From: an uncultured Mycoplasmatota bacterium
GTDB lineage: Bacteria; Bacillota_I; Bacilli_A; RF39; UBA660
Reading direction: 5' to 3'
Length of the DNA stretch: 50,448 nucleotides
Assembly (NCBI GenBank): GCA_946554325.1
Contig: CAMNSB010000002.1
Location: 1 to 50,448 of the forward strand
In this document: positions 2,902-26,356 of the stretch, one piece after another
How the letters are laid out: each line of letters opens with the position of its first letter
Position numbering within the stretch: the first letter of the stretch is position 1
Program-made: the position numbers and the translations under genes
Notes under the pieces: generated by a model
Database searches by the model: none
The model's input: only the letters and a program-made list of their open reading frames with translations
What the model was told of the DNA's origin: nothing

Positions 2902-3031
2902 AAAGTGTGTCCTCCTAACATATTCATTAAATTAAGTATACTATTTGTTGCAAATTCCGTCAAGTTCTGACGATTGACAAAATTCGCGGTTTTTAGCAAA
3001 AATAAAAAAGACTACTACTGCTCGTCCCTTC

Positions 3032-3808
3032 CTATTCGATACTACTGGGTTTATGAAATTCGAGTCTTAGTTTGTCAGCGACTGTGACAATAAACTCGGA
3101 GTTTGTGGGTTTTGCTTTGTCAATATCGACACTATGTCCAAATATTTCTTCCATCAACTGCCAGTTACCACGATTCCAACTTACTTCGATAGCGTGTCTG
3201 ATTGCTCGCTCTACGCGTGAGACTGTGGTATCAAATTTCTTTGCAATATCTGGATATAGTTCTTTCGTAATTCCTCCGATTACTTCAGGGCGGTCATAAA
3301 GCATTTGAATTCCTTCTCGGATATATTGATATCCTTTGATGTGAGATGGCACTCCTAACTCGTGCAGTGTTTTCGTAATTGAGATTTGTAAATTATTGTG
3401 ATAGACATCGATTGATTTACTACCAAATTTACTTCCCTCCATTACCTCTTCTACTCTCTTTTCTAAGTCATCTAGTTCAAATGGCTTTAGTATAAAGTAA
3501 CTGATTCCTAGTTCTGATGTTTTTCTTATCATATCTTGTGCATTATAAGAGGTTAATATAATTACTTTCTTATCAATTTTCTTCTTACGCATTTTTTCTA
3601 AGACATATACGCCGTCTTTTTTCGGCATGATTAGGTCTAAGAGTATTAAGTCATATTCATCTCTTTTCTTATCGATAAGATTAAAACCATCCTCTCCATT
3701 ATGTGCACGTAATGTTACTTTAATATCTGCGTGTTTACTAAAAAATTCGGTAACCATGTTTACTAATTCCACATTGTCATCGACCATTAATATTCTTGTC
3801 TTTTCCAT
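3032..3808 (-). CDS. spo0A: Sporulation master regulator Spo0A (response regulator)
   Basis: 258 aa. Receiver domain (MVDDN..., [11 protein letters not shown]) plus Spo0A-specific C-terminal DNA-binding domain ([35 protein letters not shown]). Confidence 0.9.
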
Positions 3809-17751: not shown

Positions 17752-20565
17752 TCACAGAATTTTTGTTAAGAATTTACCTGTGTACGACTCTTTTACTTTT
17801 GCTACTTCTTCTGGAGTTCCAGTTGCCACAATTTGTCCTCCCAGGTCTCCACCTTCTGGTCCAAGGTCAATGATGTGATCTGCTACTTTTATGACATCTA
17901 GATTGTGTTCAATGACGACTACTGTATCTTTATTATCTACTATTTTTTGTAAAATTGCAAGTAGACGCTTGATATCGTGGGTATGAAGTCCTGTGGTTGG
18001 TTCGTCTAGAACAAACAGGGTTTTTCCTGTTGCTTTTCTTTGTAATTCTTTAGCAAGCTTTACCCTTTCTGCTTCCCCTCCTGATAAGGTTGGAGCACTT
18101 TGTCCTAGTTTGATGTAACCTAAGCCAACATCTTCTAATACTTGCAATTTGTTCTTAATCTTGGGAACATTTTCAAAAAATTCTAGTGCTTCGCTTACTC
18201 TCATATCTAGGACATCTGCAATATTCTTATCTTTATATTTTATGTTTAGAGTTTCTCTATTATATCTTGTACCATTACAAACTTCACATGGAACATATAC
18301 ATCTGGTAAGAAGTGCATCTCAATTTTTTTCACACCATCTCCACGACATGCTTCACATCTTCCACCTTTTACATTAAAAGAGAATCTATTTTTTTCATAG
18401 CCATACATTTTTGCTTCTTTGGTTGTTGTAAATAGGGTTCTAATATCATCAAATACTCCTGTATAGGTTGCTGGATTACTTCTTGGTGTTCTTCCAATAG
18501 GGCTTTGAGATATTTCCACTATTTTATCTAAGTTATTGATACCTAAGATTTTCTTGTGCTTTCCAGGACGATCTTTAGAACGATATAGTTCTTTTGAAAT
18601 ACTCTTGCATAATATTTCGTTGATTAGACTACTTTTTCCACTTCCGCTTACTCCCGTTATACAAGTAAATGTTCCTAATGGTATTGTTACATCAATATTT
18701 TTTAAATTATTTTCTTCTGCACCTTTTATAGTCAATTTTTTGCCAGTGCTTTTTCTTCTGTTTTTTGGAACTTCAATACATAATTTTCCACTTAAATACT
18801 TTCCTGTTAAACTTTTTTCGTTATTCATTACTTCTTGTGGAGTTCCTATTGCCATAATTTTTCCACCACGGTCTCCTGCTTCTGGACCAATATCTACTAG
18901 ATAGTCACTGGCAAGCATAGTATCAGTATCATGTTCTACCACAACCAAGGTATTTCCTAAGTCCCTCATTTCTAAAAGGGAATTAATTAGACGTTCATTG
19001 TCCCTTTGATGGAGTCCAATACTAGGTTCATCTAATACATATAAAACTCCTGTTAGACGAGAACCAATCTGGGTTGCTAGACGAATTCTCTGAGCCTCTC
19101 CGCCAGATAAAGTTCCAGCACTTCTATTTAGTGTTAAATACTCTAAGCCTACATTTTTTAAAAATTCAAGGCGGGAATTAATTTCTTTTAATACTAAATT
19201 TGCAATTTGCTTTTGTTCTTCTGATAATTTTAAATTTTGAAAGAAAGGGATTAATTCTTTAATACTTAAACAAGTAACTTCATAAATACTTTTCTTTCCT
19301 ACTTTTACTGCTAGAACATCATCATTTAGCCTTGCTCCATGACAGGTTTCACAAGTATATTCTATCATGTAATGTTCTAACCAATCTCTAATCCAAGTAC
19401 TTGTAGTTTCTCTATATCTTCTTTCCAGATTTGTAATAATTCCTTCATAGAAGTCATCACTATTTGTAATGTTTCCACTTTTGGTCGCATAATGAAAATG
19501 AATGATTTCATCACTTCCATACATAATAATTTGTTGTTCTTTGGTGGTTAGTTTTTTAAATGGTTTATCCATATTAATTTTATAATGCTTACAAACACAT
19601 TCCAGTTTTTTATAATAAATACCATCTTGATCATCACTCAAAGTTTTAATACATCCTTCATTGATGCTTAGACTTTTATCTGGGATTACAAGGTCAGGGT
19701 CAATTTGTTGTTTAATTCCTAATCCTTTACAATCTGGGCAAGCTCCAAAAGGGGCATTGAAACTAAAGATATTTGGTTCTAACTCTGGTAGTGAAAACTC
19801 ACAGTATGGGCAAGCAAAGGACTCTGAGAATAACAATTCTTTAGCATTATCCCCTAATATTTGAATGATTACTTTTCCTTTGGATAGCTTAACCGCTTGC
19901 TCTAGCGACTCTGATAGTCTGCCACGAATGTCTTCTTTTAGGATAATTCTATCTACAACGACATCAATATTTTCACGCTTATTTTTATCTAGTATAATTT
20001 CTTCACTTAAATCAAACATTTTTCCATTGATACGAACTCTTATGTAGCCTTCTTTTCTAAGACTATCTAATAATTCTTTATGTGTTCCTTTTTCACGGTA
20101 TGTAACAGGGGCCATTATAATAATTTTGGTTCCTTCTTTATACTCCAAAATTTTATTTGCCATTTCCTCTACACTTTGTGATGTGATAGGGATATTATGA
20201 TTTTTACAATAAGCGACTCCAATACGGGCAAATAAAAGACGCAAATAATCATAAATTTCTGTTACTGTTCCTACAGTTGAACGTGGGTTTTTACTTGTCG
20301 TCTTTTGGTCAATACTAATAGCAGGGGAAAGTCCTTCAATGCTATCTACATCTGGCTTTTCTGTTCCACCTAGAAATTGACGGGCATAGGCAGATAGGCT
20401 TTCTACATATCTTCTTTGTCCTTCTGCATAAATAGTATCAAATGCAAGGGAACTTTTTCCACTACCACTAACTCCAGTCATTACGATTAATTTATTTTTT
20501 GGAAGTTCAAGGGAAACATTTTTTAAATTGTTCTCACGAGCTCCTTTGATTATAATTTTATCCAT
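17752..20565 (-). CDS. uvrA: Excinuclease ABC subunit A
   Basis: 937 aa. Two ABC modules (GVSGSGKSSL twice, LSGGEAQR/LSGGEAER) and zinc-finger CxxC pairs. Confidence 0.97.
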   Translation of the reverse strand: MDKIIIKGARENNLKNVSLELPKNKLIVMTGVSGSGKSSLAFDTIYAEGQRRYVESLSAYARQFLGGTEKPDVDSIEGLSPAISIDQKTTSKNPRSTVGTVTEIYDYLRLLFARIGVAYCKNHNIPITSQSVEEMANKILEYKEGTKIIIMAPVTYREKGTHKELLDSLRKEGYIRVRINGKMFDLSEEIILDKNKRENIDVVVDRIILKEDIRGRLSESLEQAVKLSKGKVIIQILGDNAKELLFSESFACPYCEFSLPELEPNIFSFNAPFGACPDCKGLGIKQQIDPDLVIPDKSLSINEGCIKTLSDDQDGIYYKKLECVCKHYKINMDKPFKKLTTKEQQIIMYGSDEIIHFHYATKSGNITNSDDFYEGIITNLERRYRETTSTWIRDWLEHYMIEYTCETCHGARLNDDVLAVKVGKKSIYEVTCLSIKELIPFFQNLKLSEEQKQIANLVLKEINSRLEFLKNVGLEYLTLNRSAGTLSGGEAQRIRLATQIGSRLTGVLYVLDEPSIGLHQRDNERLINSLLEMRDLGNTLVVVEHDTDTMLASDYLVDIGPEAGDRGGKIMAIGTPQEVMNNEKSLTGKYLSGKLCIEVPKNRRKSTGKKLTIKGAEENNLKNIDVTIPLGTFTCITGVSGSGKSSLINEILCKSISKELYRSKDRPGKHKKILGINNLDKIVEISQSPIGRTPRSNPATYTGVFDDIRTLFTTTKEAKMYGYEKNRFSFNVKGGRCEACRGDGVKKIEMHFLPDVYVPCEVCNGTRYNRETLNIKYKDKNIADVLDMRVSEALEFFENVPKIKNKLQVLEDVGLGYIKLGQSAPTLSGGEAERVKLAKELQRKATGKTLFVLDEPTTGLHTHDIKRLLAILQKIVDNKDTVVVIEHNLDVIKVADHIIDLGPEGGDLGGQIVATGTPEEVAKVKESYTGKFLTKIL

Positions 20566-20626
20566 ATTATCTACTTCTCCTTTTGTTATTAGAAAGTAAT
20601 ATATCTATTTCCTTTAGCTGTGTCAT

Positions 20627-20635
20627 ATTATAACA
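20627..20635 (-). promoter_or_regulatory. Candidate uvrA proximal promoter (extended -10)
   Basis: Minus-strand TGTTATAAT, about 60 nt upstream of the uvrA ATG. Confidence 0.4.
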
Positions 20636-20700
20636 CTTTTTTTAAAATTTGTCTTAGGAAATTAACGGAAAACTACGAAGTAATTTTTTCCCTTACTTGA

Positions 20701-20729
20701 AATATACATTGCAAACAAATGTTTGTCAA
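20701..20729 (-). promoter_or_regulatory. Candidate uvrA distal promoter overlapped by a palindromic operator
   Basis: Minus-strand TTGACA (20724-20729), 17-nt spacer, TATATT (20701-20706). The spacer contains the inverted repeat CAAACA-nn-TGTTTG (20712-25), which resembles a Cheo/LexA box (CGAAC-N4-GTTCG) with symmetric G->A/C->T changes. Confidence 0.4.
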
Positions 20730-20745
20730 CAAAAATTAAAAAAAT

Positions 20746-21672
20746 CTATCTACTTTTCGGTCTTGTAGATAGAACTTTTTCGTATTGACTCATAAAATCA
20801 TTTTCATCTTCGCTACTTGTTGCGATTGTTGTTACTAGATAGTTAAACTTTTTATAATCTTCAGGTAAAGTTAGAAACTCCAAAAGATATTTTCCTGTTT
20901 CTAAATCTTTTTCTACCTCATAGGTTAGTCGTTCTATATCAAATTTCTCTTCATTAATCGCATTTACTAATTTTAAAGAAAAATTGAGATTATTTTGAAT
21001 TGTTTTTTCATTTAGTGTTCCATTCGGATATCTAATTTCCATTCTTTTACTTACTCTATAGTCTTGTAAGCTAATGCCATCTCTTTTTACAAATGTCGCT
21101 TGATCATGATATAGCAAATTATATAAATAATCTGTGTGTTCATTAAATTCTATTTTGTTTACTTTGTTCAGTAAAGTTGGACGCAGATGCCTAGCATACG
21201 TTTCTTTTTCATCTCGAATTAAAAAACAATCTCCCATATAATATAGGTCCATTTCATTTTCATATATTGACACTATTTTGGCAAGTGTTTCCATAAACTT
21301 TGGTGGTTTTTTTACTTTTTCTAACTTAATATTTATTTGATTACTGCAACTATTATTAATTTTGGCTCCATTTTCCCTTAATATTTTACATATTTTCTTT
21401 AGCTCTATCCAATCTATTTTTTCATTATTATAAAGTCTACTTGAGATTTCTCCTCCATATATCTTTTTTTCTTTTTCTACTGATACTGTACTATCTATAT
21501 CTAAGTAATTTCTATTATAAATAGTACTACTTGATTTGTGGTTTCTCATATAGACTATTGGTATTTCTGTTTTTTGAAATTGTTTTTCTAATTGTTCTAG
21601 GGAAGCATCTACAAATTCTAGTTCTTGTCCATATGGATACTTGGTAATTCCTATATCATATCGATAGATCAT
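20746..21672 (-). CDS. Amidoligase-like (glutamine-synthetase-fold, Amidoligase_2-type) protein, possibly degenerate
   Basis: Motif order typical of the family: N-terminal G-x-E-x-E (YGQELEF), mid GGEISSR, GA-x-x-N-x-SC (GAKINNSCSNQINI) and C-terminal MEIRYPNGTLN (the family has lEfR...gTld). Start set to ATG 21672 behind AAAGGAAG. Confidence 0.4.
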   Translation of the reverse strand: MIYRYDIGITKYPYGQELEFVDASLEQLEKQFQKTEIPIVYMRNHKSSSTIYNRNYLDIDSTVSVEKEKKIYGGEISSRLYNNEKIDWIELKKICKILRENGAKINNSCSNQINIKLEKVKKPPKFMETLAKIVSIYENEMDLYYMGDCFLIRDEKETYARHLRPTLLNKVNKIEFNEHTDYLYNLLYHDQATFVKRDGISLQDYRVSKRMEIRYPNGTLNEKTIQNNLNFSLKLVNAINEEKFDIERLTYEVEKDLETGKYLLEFLTLPEDYKKFNYLVTTIATSSEDENDFMSQYEKVLSTRPKSR

Positions 21673-21729
21673 CGTGACCACTTCCTTTTTTTAGAACATA
21701 TTATAAATCTTTTTTTGTATTTTTTCAAT

Positions 21730-23184
21730 TTATTTTTGATTTGAGGTTTTTAATTCTTTTATTTTTCTTTTGGCATAACTTGTTTTTACTTCTTTTTCCC
21801 AATCTCTACATGGTCCAATAAAATTTTCATCTGTTTTTATTTTTACTCGGTCTTCATTTTTTAACATGTAGTTTAGAGAAACTTCTTCTTCATTCACTAT
21901 AGCATTCGTTAAATATGGGGCATTGTTTTCATCTATTCTGTAGGCAAAATCCATTAGGCAAGCATCTATTGGTAATTCTATTACTTCTCCTGTTTGGTCA
22001 TGAATTACATGAATGTGTTTTGCAAATAGTTCTGTTTTTAGGCAATTTACAAATGCTTGATTACTTGTTATTGTCTCATTTGCATCTATTAAATAACTGT
22101 AGAATTGACTTTTCTTTTCTAATTCTTCTTGCATATAATATTTTGCATTTTCGTGATAAAATTCCCAATATGCTGAAAGTCCTTTAGCAGCAATTTTGTG
22201 CATTCTTTCCGTTCTAATTTGAGCTTGTACATGTCTTCCTTCTAAACCATAGACAGTAGTGTGAAGGGACTGATAAAGGTTGGTTTTGGGACTACAGATA
22301 TAGTCTTTCATTTTTCCTGGAACTGGTTTAAATTTTCTATGAATTAGACCTAAACTTTGGTAGCATTCAAAGAAATCTTCTACTACTATTTTTAAAGCTA
22401 GAAGATCATTCATTTTGGCAAGATTTTGATGTTCCTTTAAATAGTTAGAGATTCCATAGATACTTTTTATTCTTGGCGTAATTTTACTAGTAATCCCTTC
22501 CTTTTTTAGGGCATTTTTAATTATTTCAGACATTTCTTCTAAGCATTCTTTACTTTTCTCTTCTAATTTTTCTCTTGTTTCTTTGGCATATTTATAGGTA
22601 TCTGGTTCTAAATACATAAGAGATAAATCTCTTAGTTCTACTTGTGTTTCATTATCCCCTAAGTAGTTTGCTGTTGGTGCCATGATGTCCATTGTTTCTT
22701 TGGCATTTTCTATTTGTTTTTCATACCTTTTGTACTGTAATGTTCGCATATTGTGCTTACGATCTGCTAATTTTATTTGAGGAATCCTAACGTCTGTTTT
22801 TATTCCTACTGATAACTTTCTGATATTTGCCATATTCTGTTCTTGTTTTGTAGAAAAATTTAATCTACTAATTTTTGAAACACCATCTGTTAGAATTGCT
22901 ACATCTTTATTATACTCTTTTTCAATATCTTCTTTTGTGATATCTGTATCTTCAATCGTATCATGTAAAAGGCATGCACAAATAGTGTCTCTATCTGCAT
23001 AGCGTAAGGCCATTAAATAAGCAACATATAGAGGATGGCTAATATAAGGGTCTCCACTTTGTCTATAGACTCCACTATGCAAACTTTTGGCATCCTTATA
23101 AGCATGCATTATCATCTTAGCATCTTCTTCTTTGGTATAAGTATTTACTAGTGTCATTAAATCATCAATTGTTGGATTTTTCAT
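21730..23184 (-). CDS. RelA/SpoT homologue: HD hydrolase + synthetase-like + TGS, lacking the distal C-terminal regulatory domains
   Basis: 484 aa. HD motifs (ISHPL, LLHDTIEDT, ADRKHNMRTL), a RelA_SpoT-like region (PRIKSIYGI, DYICSPKTNLYQSLHTTV, QAQIRT) and a TGS-like segment (GEVIELPIDACLMDFAYRI...RVKIKT). Only about 40 aa follow the TGS. Confidence 0.85.
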   Translation of the reverse strand: MKNPTIDDLMTLVNTYTKEEDAKMIMHAYKDAKSLHSGVYRQSGDPYISHPLYVAYLMALRYADRDTICACLLHDTIEDTDITKEDIEKEYNKDVAILTDGVSKISRLNFSTKQEQNMANIRKLSVGIKTDVRIPQIKLADRKHNMRTLQYKRYEKQIENAKETMDIMAPTANYLGDNETQVELRDLSLMYLEPDTYKYAKETREKLEEKSKECLEEMSEIIKNALKKEGITSKITPRIKSIYGISNYLKEHQNLAKMNDLLALKIVVEDFFECYQSLGLIHRKFKPVPGKMKDYICSPKTNLYQSLHTTVYGLEGRHVQAQIRTERMHKIAAKGLSAYWEFYHENAKYYMQEELEKKSQFYSYLIDANETITSNQAFVNCLKTELFAKHIHVIHDQTGEVIELPIDACLMDFAYRIDENNAPYLTNAIVNEEEVSLNYMLKNEDRVKIKTDENFIGPCRDWEKEVKTSYAKRKIKELKTSNQK

Positions 23185-23203
23185 TTTCTCTTCCTCCTAT
23201 AGC

Positions 23204-23246
23204 AAAATGACAGTTTTAAGCTCTTAAGACTTAAAACCGTCATTTT
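23204..23246 (-). terminator. Strong hairpin/intrinsic terminator between the small ORF and the Rel-like gene
   Basis: Minus-strand AAAAUGACGGUUUUAAG-[9-nt loop]-CUUAAAACUGUCAUUUU forms a 17-bp stem with one G.U. The 3' arm ends in U4, and the Rel-like RBS AGGAGG follows 6 nt later. Confidence 0.65.
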
Positions 23247-23334
23247 ATTTTTTCATTATTTGTTTTGGACACAATAATGGTGCTAGTGGAAAGTTTTGAA
23301 TACTATTTTGATTATTTACTATCACTACTACCAT
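23245..23334 (-). CDS. Unannotated 29-aa ORF downstream of the radical SAM/SPASM gene (candidate peptide substrate or leader peptide)
   Basis: GGAGG (23340-23344), a 5-nt spacer, then the ATG at 23334. Translates MVVVIVNNQNSIQNFPLAPLLCPKQIMKK*. The stop codon overlaps the first bases of the terminator stem. It is below the ORF-track length cut-off. Confidence 0.35.
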   Translation of the reverse strand: MVVVIVNNQNSIQNFPLAPLLCPKQIMKK

Positions 23335-23383
23335 AGAAACCTCCAAAATATTTATATTAATATTATCACTTTTTCTTTAAATG

Positions 23384-24226
23384 TCAATCTTTTTTTATCT
23401 TAAATCTTTCTTTATAGGTACAGCTTTGACATAACTCTTCACTAGGATAATGCGTCTGAAAACTTTCTTTTAATGTATTTAATCTAGGAGAAGCAAGAAT
23501 AGAGGAAAAACTTTCTTTATAAATATTTCCAAGGTTTATGATACCGTTACTGTCTAGACAACATGGTACTATAGTTCCATCTACTAAAATAGCAATCTGT
23601 GTTTTTAAGGCCATACAATATCCACAAGATTTGTGATTTGTCTTTCTGGGCCAGATAAATTCTTTTTCTTTATCCACATAAGTAGTAGAATTTATTTTGA
23701 CATTTTGCTCACATTTTAACTTTTCCACAATATTGGGGGATAAGTTGTAATATTTCTTTAATCTTTCCACAATTTTTGTTGATTTTTCATCTAGTCTAGT
23801 ATCCTTTAGTGTCCACAATCTATAAATTATTAGAATATCTTCTCTGATGATGGTAGTGGCTGTTAGTATTTTTTCTATGATGCCACTATTTTTATATTCT
23901 GCATGGAGAGAGATGTTTATCTTCTTTACAGAAGGATGAGTATTTAGCATATCAACTTTTTCGGGTAGTAAGATACCATTTGTTGTGATATTTACCCTAA
24001 GAGCATAAAAATCAGCAAGAGTAAGAAGGGAGTCTAGATGTGGGTGAAGAAGAGGTTCTCCTTTTACGTGTAAATAAATGGTGTTTGTATAAGGTTTGAT
24101 TTCTTTTAAAATACGTTCAAACTCTCCTATTTTCATCATTCGAGTTTTTCTGTTATCTTTACTACAGAAGGAACAGGCGAGATTGCAATGATTTGTTATT
24201 TCTATATATACTTTCTTAAATTTCAT
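23384..24226 (-). CDS. Radical SAM enzyme with C-terminal SPASM/twitch-type Cys cluster
   Basis: 280 aa. CNLACSFC (CxxxCxxC) at residues 14-21. C-terminal cysteines CGYC...PCC...CQSC. The ATG overlaps the uvrB stop (TAATG). Confidence 0.85.
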   Translation of the reverse strand: MKFKKVYIEITNHCNLACSFCSKDNRKTRMMKIGEFERILKEIKPYTNTIYLHVKGEPLLHPHLDSLLTLADFYALRVNITTNGILLPEKVDMLNTHPSVKKINISLHAEYKNSGIIEKILTATTIIREDILIIYRLWTLKDTRLDEKSTKIVERLKKYYNLSPNIVEKLKCEQNVKINSTTYVDKEKEFIWPRKTNHKSCGYCMALKTQIAILVDGTIVPCCLDSNGIINLGNIYKESFSSILASPRLNTLKESFQTHYPSEELCQSCTYKERFKIKKD

Positions 24227-26172
24227 TATTCTGACTTCATTTCAAACAAGATGTCTCTAAGTTCCATGGCACGTTCAAAGTCTAGATTCTTTGCGGCTTC
24301 TCTCATTTCTTGTTCAACCTTTTCTATGGTTAGTGCTATTTCTTTTTTGGTCATTTTCTTCTTAGGAGATGATGCCTCATCTACATTACTAATTACTTCT
24401 CTAATTTCTTTTTGGATTGTTTTTGGAATAATGCCATACTCTTTATTATATGATTCTTGAATTTTTCTACGACGAGCAGTTTCTGTGATTGCCTGATTCA
24501 TACTATCTGTTACTTTATCTCCATACATAATAACGTGTCCTTTGGCATTTCTTGCACAACGTCCGATGGTCTGAATTAAACTTCTGTTACTACGTAAGAA
24601 TCCCTCTTTATCTGCATCAAGAATTGCAATTAGGGAAACTTCTGGGATATCGATTCCTTCTCGTAATAAGTTAATTCCTACTACTACATCGTATTTTCCT
24701 GCTCTTAAGTCGTGAATGATTTTTAGTCTTTGGAGAGTTTTTACTTCGGCATGTAAATAGGCTACTTTGATATCTAACTCTTTTAAATAGTTTGTTAGCT
24801 CTTCTGCCATACGAATCGTAAGGGTTGTTACTAATGTTCTTTCATTTAATTCAATTCGCTTGTTAATTTCTCCTACTAAGTCATCAATTTGGCCTTCTGT
24901 TTTTCTCACTTCTACTGTTGGATCTAAAAGCCCTGTTGGTCGGATGATTTGTTCAATGAATTTTCCTTCAGTGTGTTCTAGTTCATAATCCCCTGGCGTT
25001 GCAGAAACATAGATTGCTTGATTGATTTTTTTCTCAAATTCATCAAACTTTAATGGTCTATTATCTAGGGCGCTTGGAAGACGAAAGCCGAAGTCTACTA
25101 AATTCATTTTGCGAGCACGGTCTCCATTATACATTCCTCTTACCTGTGGTAGAGTAACATGAGACTCATCTATAACAAGTAGGTAGTCATCTGGAAAGAA
25201 GTCCATCAAAGTAGTTGGAGTTTCTCCAGGGCTTCTTCCTGCCATTGGGGCAGAATAGTTTTCAATTCCTGTGCAAAAACCTGTTTCTTCCAACATTTCA
25301 ATATCATAATTTGTCCTTTGTTCTAGGCGTTCTGCTGGTAGGGGTTTATTATTTTCTTTAAAATATGCAAGCCGTTCTTTTAACTCTTTTTGTATTCTAA
25401 CAATGGCATCTTTTAATTTATTATCACTTACTACGAAATGACTTGCTGGAAATAGACTAATGGTTTTTTTATTTGAGATAATTGCTCCTGTTAGAGTATC
25501 TATTTCACTAATCCTATCAATTTCACTACCAAAAAACTCAATTCGGTAACCCGTCGTATTTTGATATGCTGGAATGATTTCTAAGGTATCTCCTCTTACT
25601 CTAAAAGTTCCACGTTTAAAGTCCATGTCGTTTCGCTCATATAGCATGTCCACTAGTTTTGTAAGTACTGCATTTCTTTCCACTTCGTCTCCTACATTTA
25701 GAGTTAACATTTTATTTTTATACTCATCTACTTCACCAATACCATAGATACAAGAGACACTAGCAACCACAATAACATCTCTACTTGATAAAAGACTACT
25801 AGTAGCACGATGACGAAGTTCATCTATTTCATCATTGATGGATGAGTCTTTTTCAATATAAGTATCGGTGGAAGGAACATATGCTTCTGGTTGATAGTAA
25901 TCGTAGTATGACACAAAATACTCTACTCGGTTATTTGGAAATAGTTCCTTAAATTCACTGTAAAGTTGTCCTGCTAGTGTTTTATTGTGAGCAAGTACTA
26001 AGGTTGGCTTATTTACTTCTTTTATTACATTTGCAATTGTAAATGTTTTTCCTGTTCCTGTTGCTCCTAGTAGGACTTGTTCTTTTTTTCCTTCTTTAAT
26101 GCCATTCACTAATTCTTTTATTGCTTTTGGTTGGTCCCCATTGGGGGTATATTTTGATACTAATTCAAACAT
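24226..26172 (-). CDS. uvrB: Excinuclease ABC subunit B
   Basis: Helicase motifs GATGTGKTF and DESH, and a C-terminal UVR domain ([16 protein letters not shown]). Start set to ATG 26172 (MFELVSKY) behind GGAGG; the ORF-track start 26244 adds 24 unlikely residues. Confidence 0.96.
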
Positions 26173-26356
26173 TTTCTGACCTCCATCTTTTCGCATATAT
26201 TTACTGTAAAAACCTATATTGATTTCTATTTTATATAAATTCATTTAGAATAGCAATATATTTTAATTAGAAAAAGAAAAGACTCTTTCAGCTTTTATGT
26301 TAATTTATTGTTTTCATTGATTTTTGATATGATTTCTCAGTATTTTGTAAGAGTAT

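Follow-up and report, generated by a model that had tools for sequence, protein, structure and literature searches.

Within a 50,448-nt stretch from an uncultured Mycoplasmatota bacterium (contig CAMNSB010000002.1, positions 1 to 50,448; hereafter the window), a 29-codon open reading frame (ORF), here called the mini-ORF, lies in the leader between a radical S-adenosylmethionine (rSAM) gene with a SPASM domain and a gene for a Rel-like enzyme. The gene order on the minus strand is uvrB, rSAM, leader, Rel-like, Amidoligase_2, uvrA. All leader, rSAM and Rel-like features are on that strand and are given below in window numbering, including the two strands of an RNA helix, P1, that covers the start of the mini-ORF and its Shine-Dalgarno (SD) sequence.

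24226-23384, minus strand: rSAM/SPASM gene, 280 aa, stop codon TGA at 23386-23384
23387-23360, minus strand: predicted near-consensus promoter of the sigma-A type, TTGACA-16-TAATAT with a TG extension (10/12 match with TG in the promoter scan)
23348-23322, minus strand: 5' strand of P1, with UUUUGGA (including the first 3 nt of the SD), the AUG at 23334-23332 and codons 1-4 (the 'VVV' run)
23344-23340, minus strand: SD of the mini-ORF, GGAGG, followed by 5 nt and the ATG at 23334
23334-23245, minus strand: leader mini-ORF, 29 codons plus TAA (23247-23245), translating to MVVVIVNNQNSIQNFPLAPLLCPKQIMKK and a stop
23288-23263, minus strand: 3' strand of P1, anti-SD and anti-AUG, in codons 16-24 (PLAPLLCPK), with CACUA, ACCAU and UCCAAAA
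23246-23204, minus strand: intrinsic-terminator-like hairpin (putative attenuator), 17-18 bp, dG -16.7 to -17.6 kcal/mol, with a U4 end and then GCUAU
23198-23193, minus strand: SD of the Rel-like gene, AGGAGG, 5 nt 3' of the terminator
23184-21730, minus strand: Rel-like gene, ATG at 23184, 484 aa, with HD_4, RelA_SpoT and TGS domains

Part of this arrangement had been described in a sequence-only reading of the locus, which reported a 29-codon frame opened by GGAGG-N5-ATG at 23334, 49 nt past the rSAM stop (23383-23335), a stop codon overlapping the hairpin at 23204-23246 with its U4 end, and the Rel-like ribosome-binding site (RBS) right after it. All of these features were borne out; the promoter and helix P1 are additions of the present analysis. 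The rSAM gene is joined to uvrB by TAATG coupling. At its distal end, the -35 box TTGACA (23387-23382) overlaps the rSAM stop codon, the extended -10 element TGaTAATAT occupies 23368-23360, and transcription of the leader is predicted to start at an A near 23353. Since the promoter is placed after the rSAM gene, the mini-ORF heads its own transcript, which is the sole visible route to the Rel-like gene (rel). The stem of the hairpin begins within the TAA stop codon of the mini-ORF, and the fold of the 181-nt leader reaches z = -4.17 against dinucleotide shuffles. The exact mini-ORF sequence is recorded as a called gene on four contigs.

To place the leader in a wider context, related loci were gathered in three ways: by a query with the Rel-like protein, from relatives in clusters of >90% identity, and from homologues of 60-74% identity. 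The resulting set comprises 29 distinct truncated-Rel loci in unrelated genomic contexts, with Rel identities from 82% down to 41%; loci at about 60-82% Rel identity are referred to as close and intermediate relatives, and for each far-group locus flanks of 1.5-4 kb were examined. Two extra family loci stand outside the 29, one without such a leader (L026) and one cut by a contig end (L022). A common layout of promoter, SD, ORF of 17-50 codons, terminator, SD and rel was found in 29/29 loci. Among the close and intermediate relatives that were aligned, the promoter is kept; far-group loci carry equivalent TTGACA or TTGACT and -10 boxes directly 5' of the mini-ORF, as judged by eye. The terminator ends 19-30 nt before the rel start in the family loci (21/23 in a direct hairpin scan), an arrangement seen in 0/68 control loci of canonical long Rel proteins (700-755 aa). 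Some terminator-like hairpin within 130 nt upstream does occur in 12/68 of these controls, the closest ending at -39.

The sequence-only reading had also suggested a check for the mini-ORF downstream of rSAM orthologues. In three loci with such orthologues (46-50% identity; L001-L003), the rSAM gene is joined to the end of uvrB and is followed by uvrA or other genes, with neither mini-ORF nor rel. Conversely, the fetched flanks of far-group loci contain no uvrB, rSAM or amidoligase, except for a uvrB fragment in L070. The leader module belongs to the truncated Rel family, not to the rSAM gene. This family is widespread in metagenome bins of gut Bacilli, with more than 100 clusters at ~50% identity; a metagenome scan for close relatives returned only loci of ~50% identity, mostly duplicates of those already collected.

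The conserved property of the mini-ORF is its frame. In 29/29 loci, the SD-led frame runs from its start without a stop codon until 9 nt or less separate it from the terminator. Mononucleotide shuffling puts the chance of this at ~0.08 for a single locus, and the two alternative frames stay open in just 8/58 cases. Loss of the frame in orthologous loci had been named as the finding that would speak against the ORF; the opposite was found. Among 12 close and intermediate relatives, the ORF measures 27-34 codons and all indels preserve the frame. Its end point is equally stable: counted from the first stem base, the stop codon begins at -13 to +25 nt in 27/29 loci. The ORFs of L011 and L015 read through the terminator, the UGA of L015 overlapping the rel AUG and the ORF of L011 ending a few nt past it.

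The encoded peptide behaves differently. A synonymous versus non-synonymous pattern had been suggested as a test of ORF conservation. The pairwise ratio of non-synonymous to synonymous change (pN/pS) over the 12 sequences is 0.93, about neutral, with frame-shifted controls at 0.75 and 1.06; in the same sequences the three codon positions vary evenly, with no codon-position periodicity. The single Cys of the window peptide is replaced in 7/12 close and intermediate relatives, by Arg in six and Gly in one, and no similarity was detected between far-group and close-group peptides. Only two blocks are conserved within the close group: the start region (SD, AUG and V/I/M codons) and L-[LSV]-[LV]-[C/R]-P-K. 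Relative to composition, the 29 leader ORFs over-represent F, K, M, N, P and V and under-represent H, T, Y and I. What is conserved is that the ORF is translated and where its translation ends, and the peptide sequence is unconstrained; the 29-codon frame is real but most likely not a peptide product.

The two conserved blocks are the two strands of P1, as defined by the minimum-energy fold of the window leader from its predicted 5' end. In this fold, UUUUGGA (23348-23342) pairs with UCCAAAA (23269-23263), AUGGU (23334-23330) with ACCAU (23281-23277), and UAGUG (23327-23323) with CACUA (23288-23284), with pair probabilities of ~0.9 in the window. The best duplex between the SD region and the ORF interior of each leader falls on the 'motif' of that locus. 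This complementarity exceeds that of shuffled sequences, with a mean z of -1.21 over 29 loci. As a control, the rel SD was compared with the leader, and the mean z of -0.04 led us to reject the idea that the leader sequesters the rel SD. The 5' region and ORF interior are also matched locus by locus: cognate pairs average -17.3 kcal/mol versus -12.3 kcal/mol for non-cognate pairs, and 0/20000 permutations were as good (p < 5e-5).

The pairing is realized by different sequences in different loci. L107 has GGG:CCC where the window has GGA:UCC, L020 forms 14 bp, and the strands are AUUUCGGAGG : CUUUCGAAAU in L015 and AAAAGAAGGC : GCCUUUCUUUU in L021. Since the P1 sequences differ between loci yet stay complementary, they covary at the scale of the family. 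In the alignment of the 12 sequences the signal is weaker, the share of paired cells being 72-79% versus 38-58% when the partner strand is slid. The 'conserved peptide motif' PLAPLLCPK is thus a strand of an RNA helix. The interior of P1 is not conserved and shows no aptamer-like core. An alternative register from RNAalifold, GGAGGU:ACCAUU, was set aside, the fold from the predicted 5' end favouring UUUUGGA:UCCAAAA plus AUGGU:ACCAU; the SD is hidden in both. In far-group leaders, inspection by eye also revealed a TTNTTT-like stretch of pyrimidines (CCUUUCUUU) within the anti-SD strand, which might, speculatively, serve as a NusG-type pause signal as well.

The terminator is the second stable structure of the leader. 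It is 97.5% paired in the 12 relatives, and five pairs are changed on both sides in a compensatory manner. The U-tract of the window is short (UUUUGCUAU), whereas relatives carry 5-8 U, and because of this a simple terminator scan of the window did not call the hairpin at 23246-23204. No RNA antiterminator was recognized. The complementarity of the ORF interior to the 5' arm of the terminator is no better than in shuffles (z near 0), and that of the 5' region to the terminator is not locus-specific (cognate -9.9, non-cognate -10.7, p = 0.93); an antiterminator formed by either segment was rejected on these grounds. The leader therefore consists of two stable hairpins, P1 and the terminator, with no RNA alternative to termination. 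Rfam gave no match at the leaders, neither in the window region at E up to 10 nor at 20 related loci at the gathering score.

On the plus strand (window 23087-23260), the U-tract that follows the same hairpin (TTTTATTTTTTC) is better than its minus-strand counterpart, and a promoter-like TTGGCA-17-TATCAT (23087-23115) within the 5' end of rel faces it. Together they could be the source of a candidate antisense RNA of ~130 nt across the rel RBS; promoter-like hits occur at chance level (8 found vs 9.6 expected).

The gene downstream of the leader encodes an unusual Rel. The 484-aa protein aligns to Bacillus subtilis Rel (PDB 6YXA) with E = 7e-97 and ends after TGS, with the helical, CC/ZFD and ACT/RRM domains absent; family members measure 471-494 aa versus 703-755 aa for canonical Rel. 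The hydrolase motifs of the HD domain are intact (HDxxED as LLHDTIEDT, plus HNMRT). The synthetase motifs deviate: in the catalytic Glu region, canonical LEVQIRT is VQAQIRT, a Glu-to-Gln change; the second motif, canonical DLLAVR (DLxAxR), is DLLALK; and the third, canonical AAHW, is SAYW, family members generally having DLLALK and AYW beside an intact HDxxED. Q-[A/T/M/C]-QIRT is present in every family member where the motif search found QIRT (four members were unmatched), while the six canonical Rels checked all keep Glu (ExQIRT). Hogg and colleagues reportedly found in 2004 that Glu-to-Gln at this site, E323Q in Rel_Seq, abolishes synthesis. Judged by these motifs, the truncated Rel is probably a hydrolase-only enzyme of guanosine tetra- and pentaphosphate ((p)ppGpp) that is devoid of ribosome-docking domains.

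Considering these observations together, we regard it as probable that the mini-ORF forms the translated centre of a leader acting in cis, by which transcription into the truncated Rel gene is gated. According to the proposed model, the strong promoter over the rSAM stop would start an RNA whose first ~20 nt hold the SD of the mini-ORF. About 70 nt further on, codons 16-24 would close P1 over the SD and AUG, and this closure would limit ribosome loading to a co-transcriptional window, that is, to a pioneer ribosome. The mini-ORF would end at the foot of the intrinsic terminator just before the rel RBS, so that a pioneer ribosome on the 5' arm of the terminator as RNA polymerase reaches the U-tract could block the hairpin, by analogy with pyrBI/pyrE. 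With no RNA antiterminator in the leader, only the ribosome would be able to prevent the terminator. Such blocking by the ribosome is what one would predict from the stop codon, whose position at the stem or within it is conserved.

Prompt initiation and unhindered elongation would then give read-through, and Rel would be made (ON), whereas late initiation or an upstream stall, caused by starvation or translation inhibitors, would leave P1 and the terminator in place and no Rel would be made (OFF). The leader would thereby act as a sensor of translation keeping pace with transcription, and a (p)ppGpp hydrolase would be produced only under healthy translation. Since the protein has no ribosome-binding domains, the mRNA leader may do the ribosome sensing in its stead.

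Several points weigh against this model. The polarity of control, with translation as the ON state, is deduced from the missing antiterminator. The window U-tract is only U4, and termination at its hairpin may be leaky. Bacillus-type RNA polymerase is reported to outrun ribosomes, so a ribosome could perhaps catch up only if the polymerase paused. The covariation of P1 is modest within the close group alone, and the ~2-fold enrichment of Cys codons in the family leader ORFs is unexplained by plain coupling. The hydrolase-only assignment hangs on the known role of one residue. Finally, the sole metatranscriptome containing the organism contributes three 151-nt contigs, none over the leader, and is too sparse to reveal a transcript 3' end at the hairpin.

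The Cys enrichment is the main support for the alternative that survives best, namely a Cys-codon sensor layered on the same device, in which a shortage of Cys-tRNA would stall the ribosome before the terminator and turn rel off. The 29 leader ORFs contain 51 Cys codons versus 22 expected from composition (z 6.4), and the other frames contain 25-26; Cys is present in the leader ORFs of 26/29 loci, and in many far-group peptides it is clustered (CSC, CC, CxxC). A precedent is reported from mycobacteria, where polycysteine leader ORFs are said to be cysteine-responsive attenuators (bioRxiv 10.1101/834739). The window ORF, however, has one Cys only, and its codon, the UGU of GUGUCCAAAA, belongs to the anti-SD strand; the position is Arg or Gly in most of the 12 relatives, as noted above, and L009, L106 and L110 have no Cys at all. 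By a hand count, about one third of all Cys codons fall in the 3' strand of P1, whose RNA is under pairing constraint. We consider such a sensor unlikely overall: as an extra layer, Cys sensing may apply to the family and is weak for the window clade.

It is less likely still that the mini-ORF is an independent micropeptide gene with its own promoter and terminator, rel being expressed by constitutive leak-through. The strong promoter, the strong SD and the terminator fit a gene of this kind, gene callers do call the ORF (on the four contigs mentioned, and as a 30-aa gene in L106), and a number of far-group peptides look like membrane peptides in their hydrophobicity. Against it stand the near-neutral pN/pS and missing codon-position periodicity, the lack of similarity between close and far peptides, lengths that range from 17 to 50 codons, and the fact that the only conserved 'motifs' are the two P1 strands. 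Moreover, because the terminator ends 19-30 nt before the rel start, rel has no other promoter and the terminator lies, by position, in the rel leader; the ORFs of L011 and L015 even run through the terminator to the rel start or just past it.

A riboregulator, in which P1 and the terminator answer to a trans factor (such as the Rel-like protein itself, a nucleotide or an antisense RNA), with the ORF being incidental, would account for the better conservation of structure than of peptide, and the plus-strand promoter-like site facing a hairpin with a U-rich tail could supply the antisense RNA. Yet an open, SD-spaced frame in 29/29 loci with its stop at the terminator foot is unexpected for an incidental ORF, the P1 interior is unconserved and has no aptamer-like core or Rfam match, and the plus-strand site lies within the chance expectation given above. 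We regard this explanation as very improbable.

The other option of the sequence-only reading, a Val/Ile leader peptide that modulates the terminator, fared differently in its two parts: a leader ORF governing the terminator and read-through into the Rel-like gene is retained in the model proposed here, and the Val/Ile specifics are not. In favour of a trp/ilv-type attenuator, V, I, M and L abound in the N-termini of close and intermediate relatives (MVVVIV, MVVLMT, MAVVMI, MVITMI and others), but those of the far group are unrelated (MIRL, MKKK, MGK, MRNY). Where the run does occur, it is explained at the RNA level as the P1 5' strand, pairing with CACUA and ACCAU. There is no antiterminator for a stall to favour, so in the proposed model a stall at the Val/Ile codons would promote termination rather than read-through, and the distance of ~70 nt between these codons and the hairpin, already recognized as a weakness, counts against Val/Ile attenuation as well. 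This reading is already largely refuted. The last alternative, that the mini-ORF is a ribosomally synthesized and post-translationally modified peptide (RiPP) precursor or other substrate of the rSAM/SPASM enzyme, as its same-strand neighbour and its Cys had suggested, is already contradicted: the mini-ORF has its own promoter and is linked to rel, the rSAM orthologues of 46-50% identity are uvrB-coupled and come with neither mini-ORF nor rel, far-group loci have no rSAM in the fetched flanks, the Cys is not conserved, the peptide evolves neutrally, and Radical_SAM and SPASM are the sole Pfam hits in the 280-aa enzyme, which shows no RiPP recognition element (RRE)/PqqD-like peptide-recognition domain.

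Control of (p)ppGpp is usually explained by allostery, with the ribosome as the place where Rel, RelA or SpoT is regulated. Beyond the gating of rel by the translated mini-ORF, we tentatively propose, as a possibility that we ourselves hold to be somewhat doubtful, that in this clade of uncultured gut Bacilli ribosome sensing has moved from the C-terminal domains of Rel to the mRNA, where an antiterminator-free leader composed of an RBS-hiding helix, a mini-ORF and a terminator licenses a hydrolase-only RelA/SpoT homologue (RSH) via coupling and not via ribosome allostery. If true, this would be a natural antiterminator-free coupling sensor in a Gram-positive lineage, where coupling is debated, and a case of a regulatory function that migrated from protein domains to a cis-acting RNA. 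For annotation, the locus is a caution against taking short Cys-containing ORFs beside rSAM genes as RiPP precursors.

Several observations concern the neighbourhood of the truncated rel genes. The uvrB-linked 280-aa rSAM gene is kept between uvrB and uvrA, or right after uvrB, in relatives without the Rel block, and no NCBIfam model reaches its cut-off for the rSAM protein. Among L008, L009, L103-L111 and the window (17752-26244), UvrB is 92-94% and UvrA 91-95% identical, and the genes between them diverge much faster (Rel 60-80%, rSAM 68-76%, amidoligase 53-64%). An Amidoligase_2 gene (20746-21681, minus strand, in the window) follows the truncated rel in most relatives with uvrB-rSAM-rel and was not found in the fetched 1.5-4 kb flanks of the far group; in L107 and L108, a DUF7666 gene takes the amidoligase position. 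In these two loci (3001-3063), the caller took an ATG within the terminator hairpin as the start of the Rel-like gene, giving 498 aa, and the SD-led rel start lies 60 nt downstream of the called start; start annotation in the truncated Rel family is unreliable.

L023 and L027 are two truncated paralogues in one metagenome bin (CAKOIF01). The L023 gene (480 aa) has the leader, and that of L027 (~459 aa, QCQIRT) follows a recA-like gene and has a plain promoter, the leader being absent. In two far-group loci, a T-box leader lies directly 3' of the truncated rel (L019:3058-3268 and L025:2991-3178), an arrangement that we take to resemble the rel ... T-box-hisS neighbourhood of Bacillus. This suggests that truncated rel occupies the ancestral rel locus in L019 and L025; in the window clade it lies between uvrB and uvrA.

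Our literature searches, which were limited in coverage, found no leader attenuator described at a rel gene. Ribosome-mediated attenuation as such is well known. In the Escherichia coli pyrBI (pyrL) and pyrE leaders, a leader ORF is translated to or through an intrinsic terminator, and a ribosome close behind RNA polymerase blocks the hairpin; there is no RNA antiterminator, and the output reports the tightness of transcription-translation coupling. The leader described here is similar in that its ORF reaches or overlaps the terminator (27/29 loci, plus the two read-through cases) and in that no antiterminator is present; blockage by the ribosome is part of the proposed model. The input of pyrBI/pyrE is the uridine triphosphate (UTP)-sensitive pausing of polymerase at U-runs and the target is pyrimidine synthesis, whereas here the target is an RSH enzyme. 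The present leader also adds a helix that sequesters the SD and AUG, which pyrL lacks, and its host belongs to a low-GC Bacilli lineage.

With the trpL, hisL, leuL and ilvL leaders it shares a promoter-proximal, SD-led short ORF, a terminator before the structural gene and, as proposed, a decision set by the position of the ribosome. Unlike these trp/his-type leaders, it has no antiterminator/anti-antiterminator pairing and no tandem regulatory codons conserved across the family, and its predicted polarity is opposite, a stall leading to termination. Among the attenuators of antibiotic-resistance genes, bmrB-bmrCD of B. subtilis works by ribosome stalling that exposes an antiterminator and turns the gene ON. 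At vmlR (PMC9226507) and msrD (PMC10314930), which are of the same kind, a drug-stalled ribosome exposes an antiterminator and the gene is ON; attenuation at vmlR has been linked to (p)ppGpp physiology (PMC9226507). All three resemble the present leader in that a small ORF precedes a terminator in the 5' leader of a Firmicute gene and its state of translation sets read-through, and differ from it in that the leader here has no antiterminator and no conserved peptide arrest motif.

At the level of the enzyme, some Bacillus strains have RshC[HS], a long RSH that is likewise truncated after TGS (Atkinson et al. 2011, PMC3153485). This comparison extends to the protein only, and no leader attenuator is described for RshC. 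In the hydrolase-only long RSHs of the SpoT[Hs] type, the synthetase looks inactive, as it does in the truncated Rel family. Compared with these systems, the leader upstream of the truncated rel would be a variant of known ribosome-mediated attenuation, to which a helix sequestering its own RBS is added.

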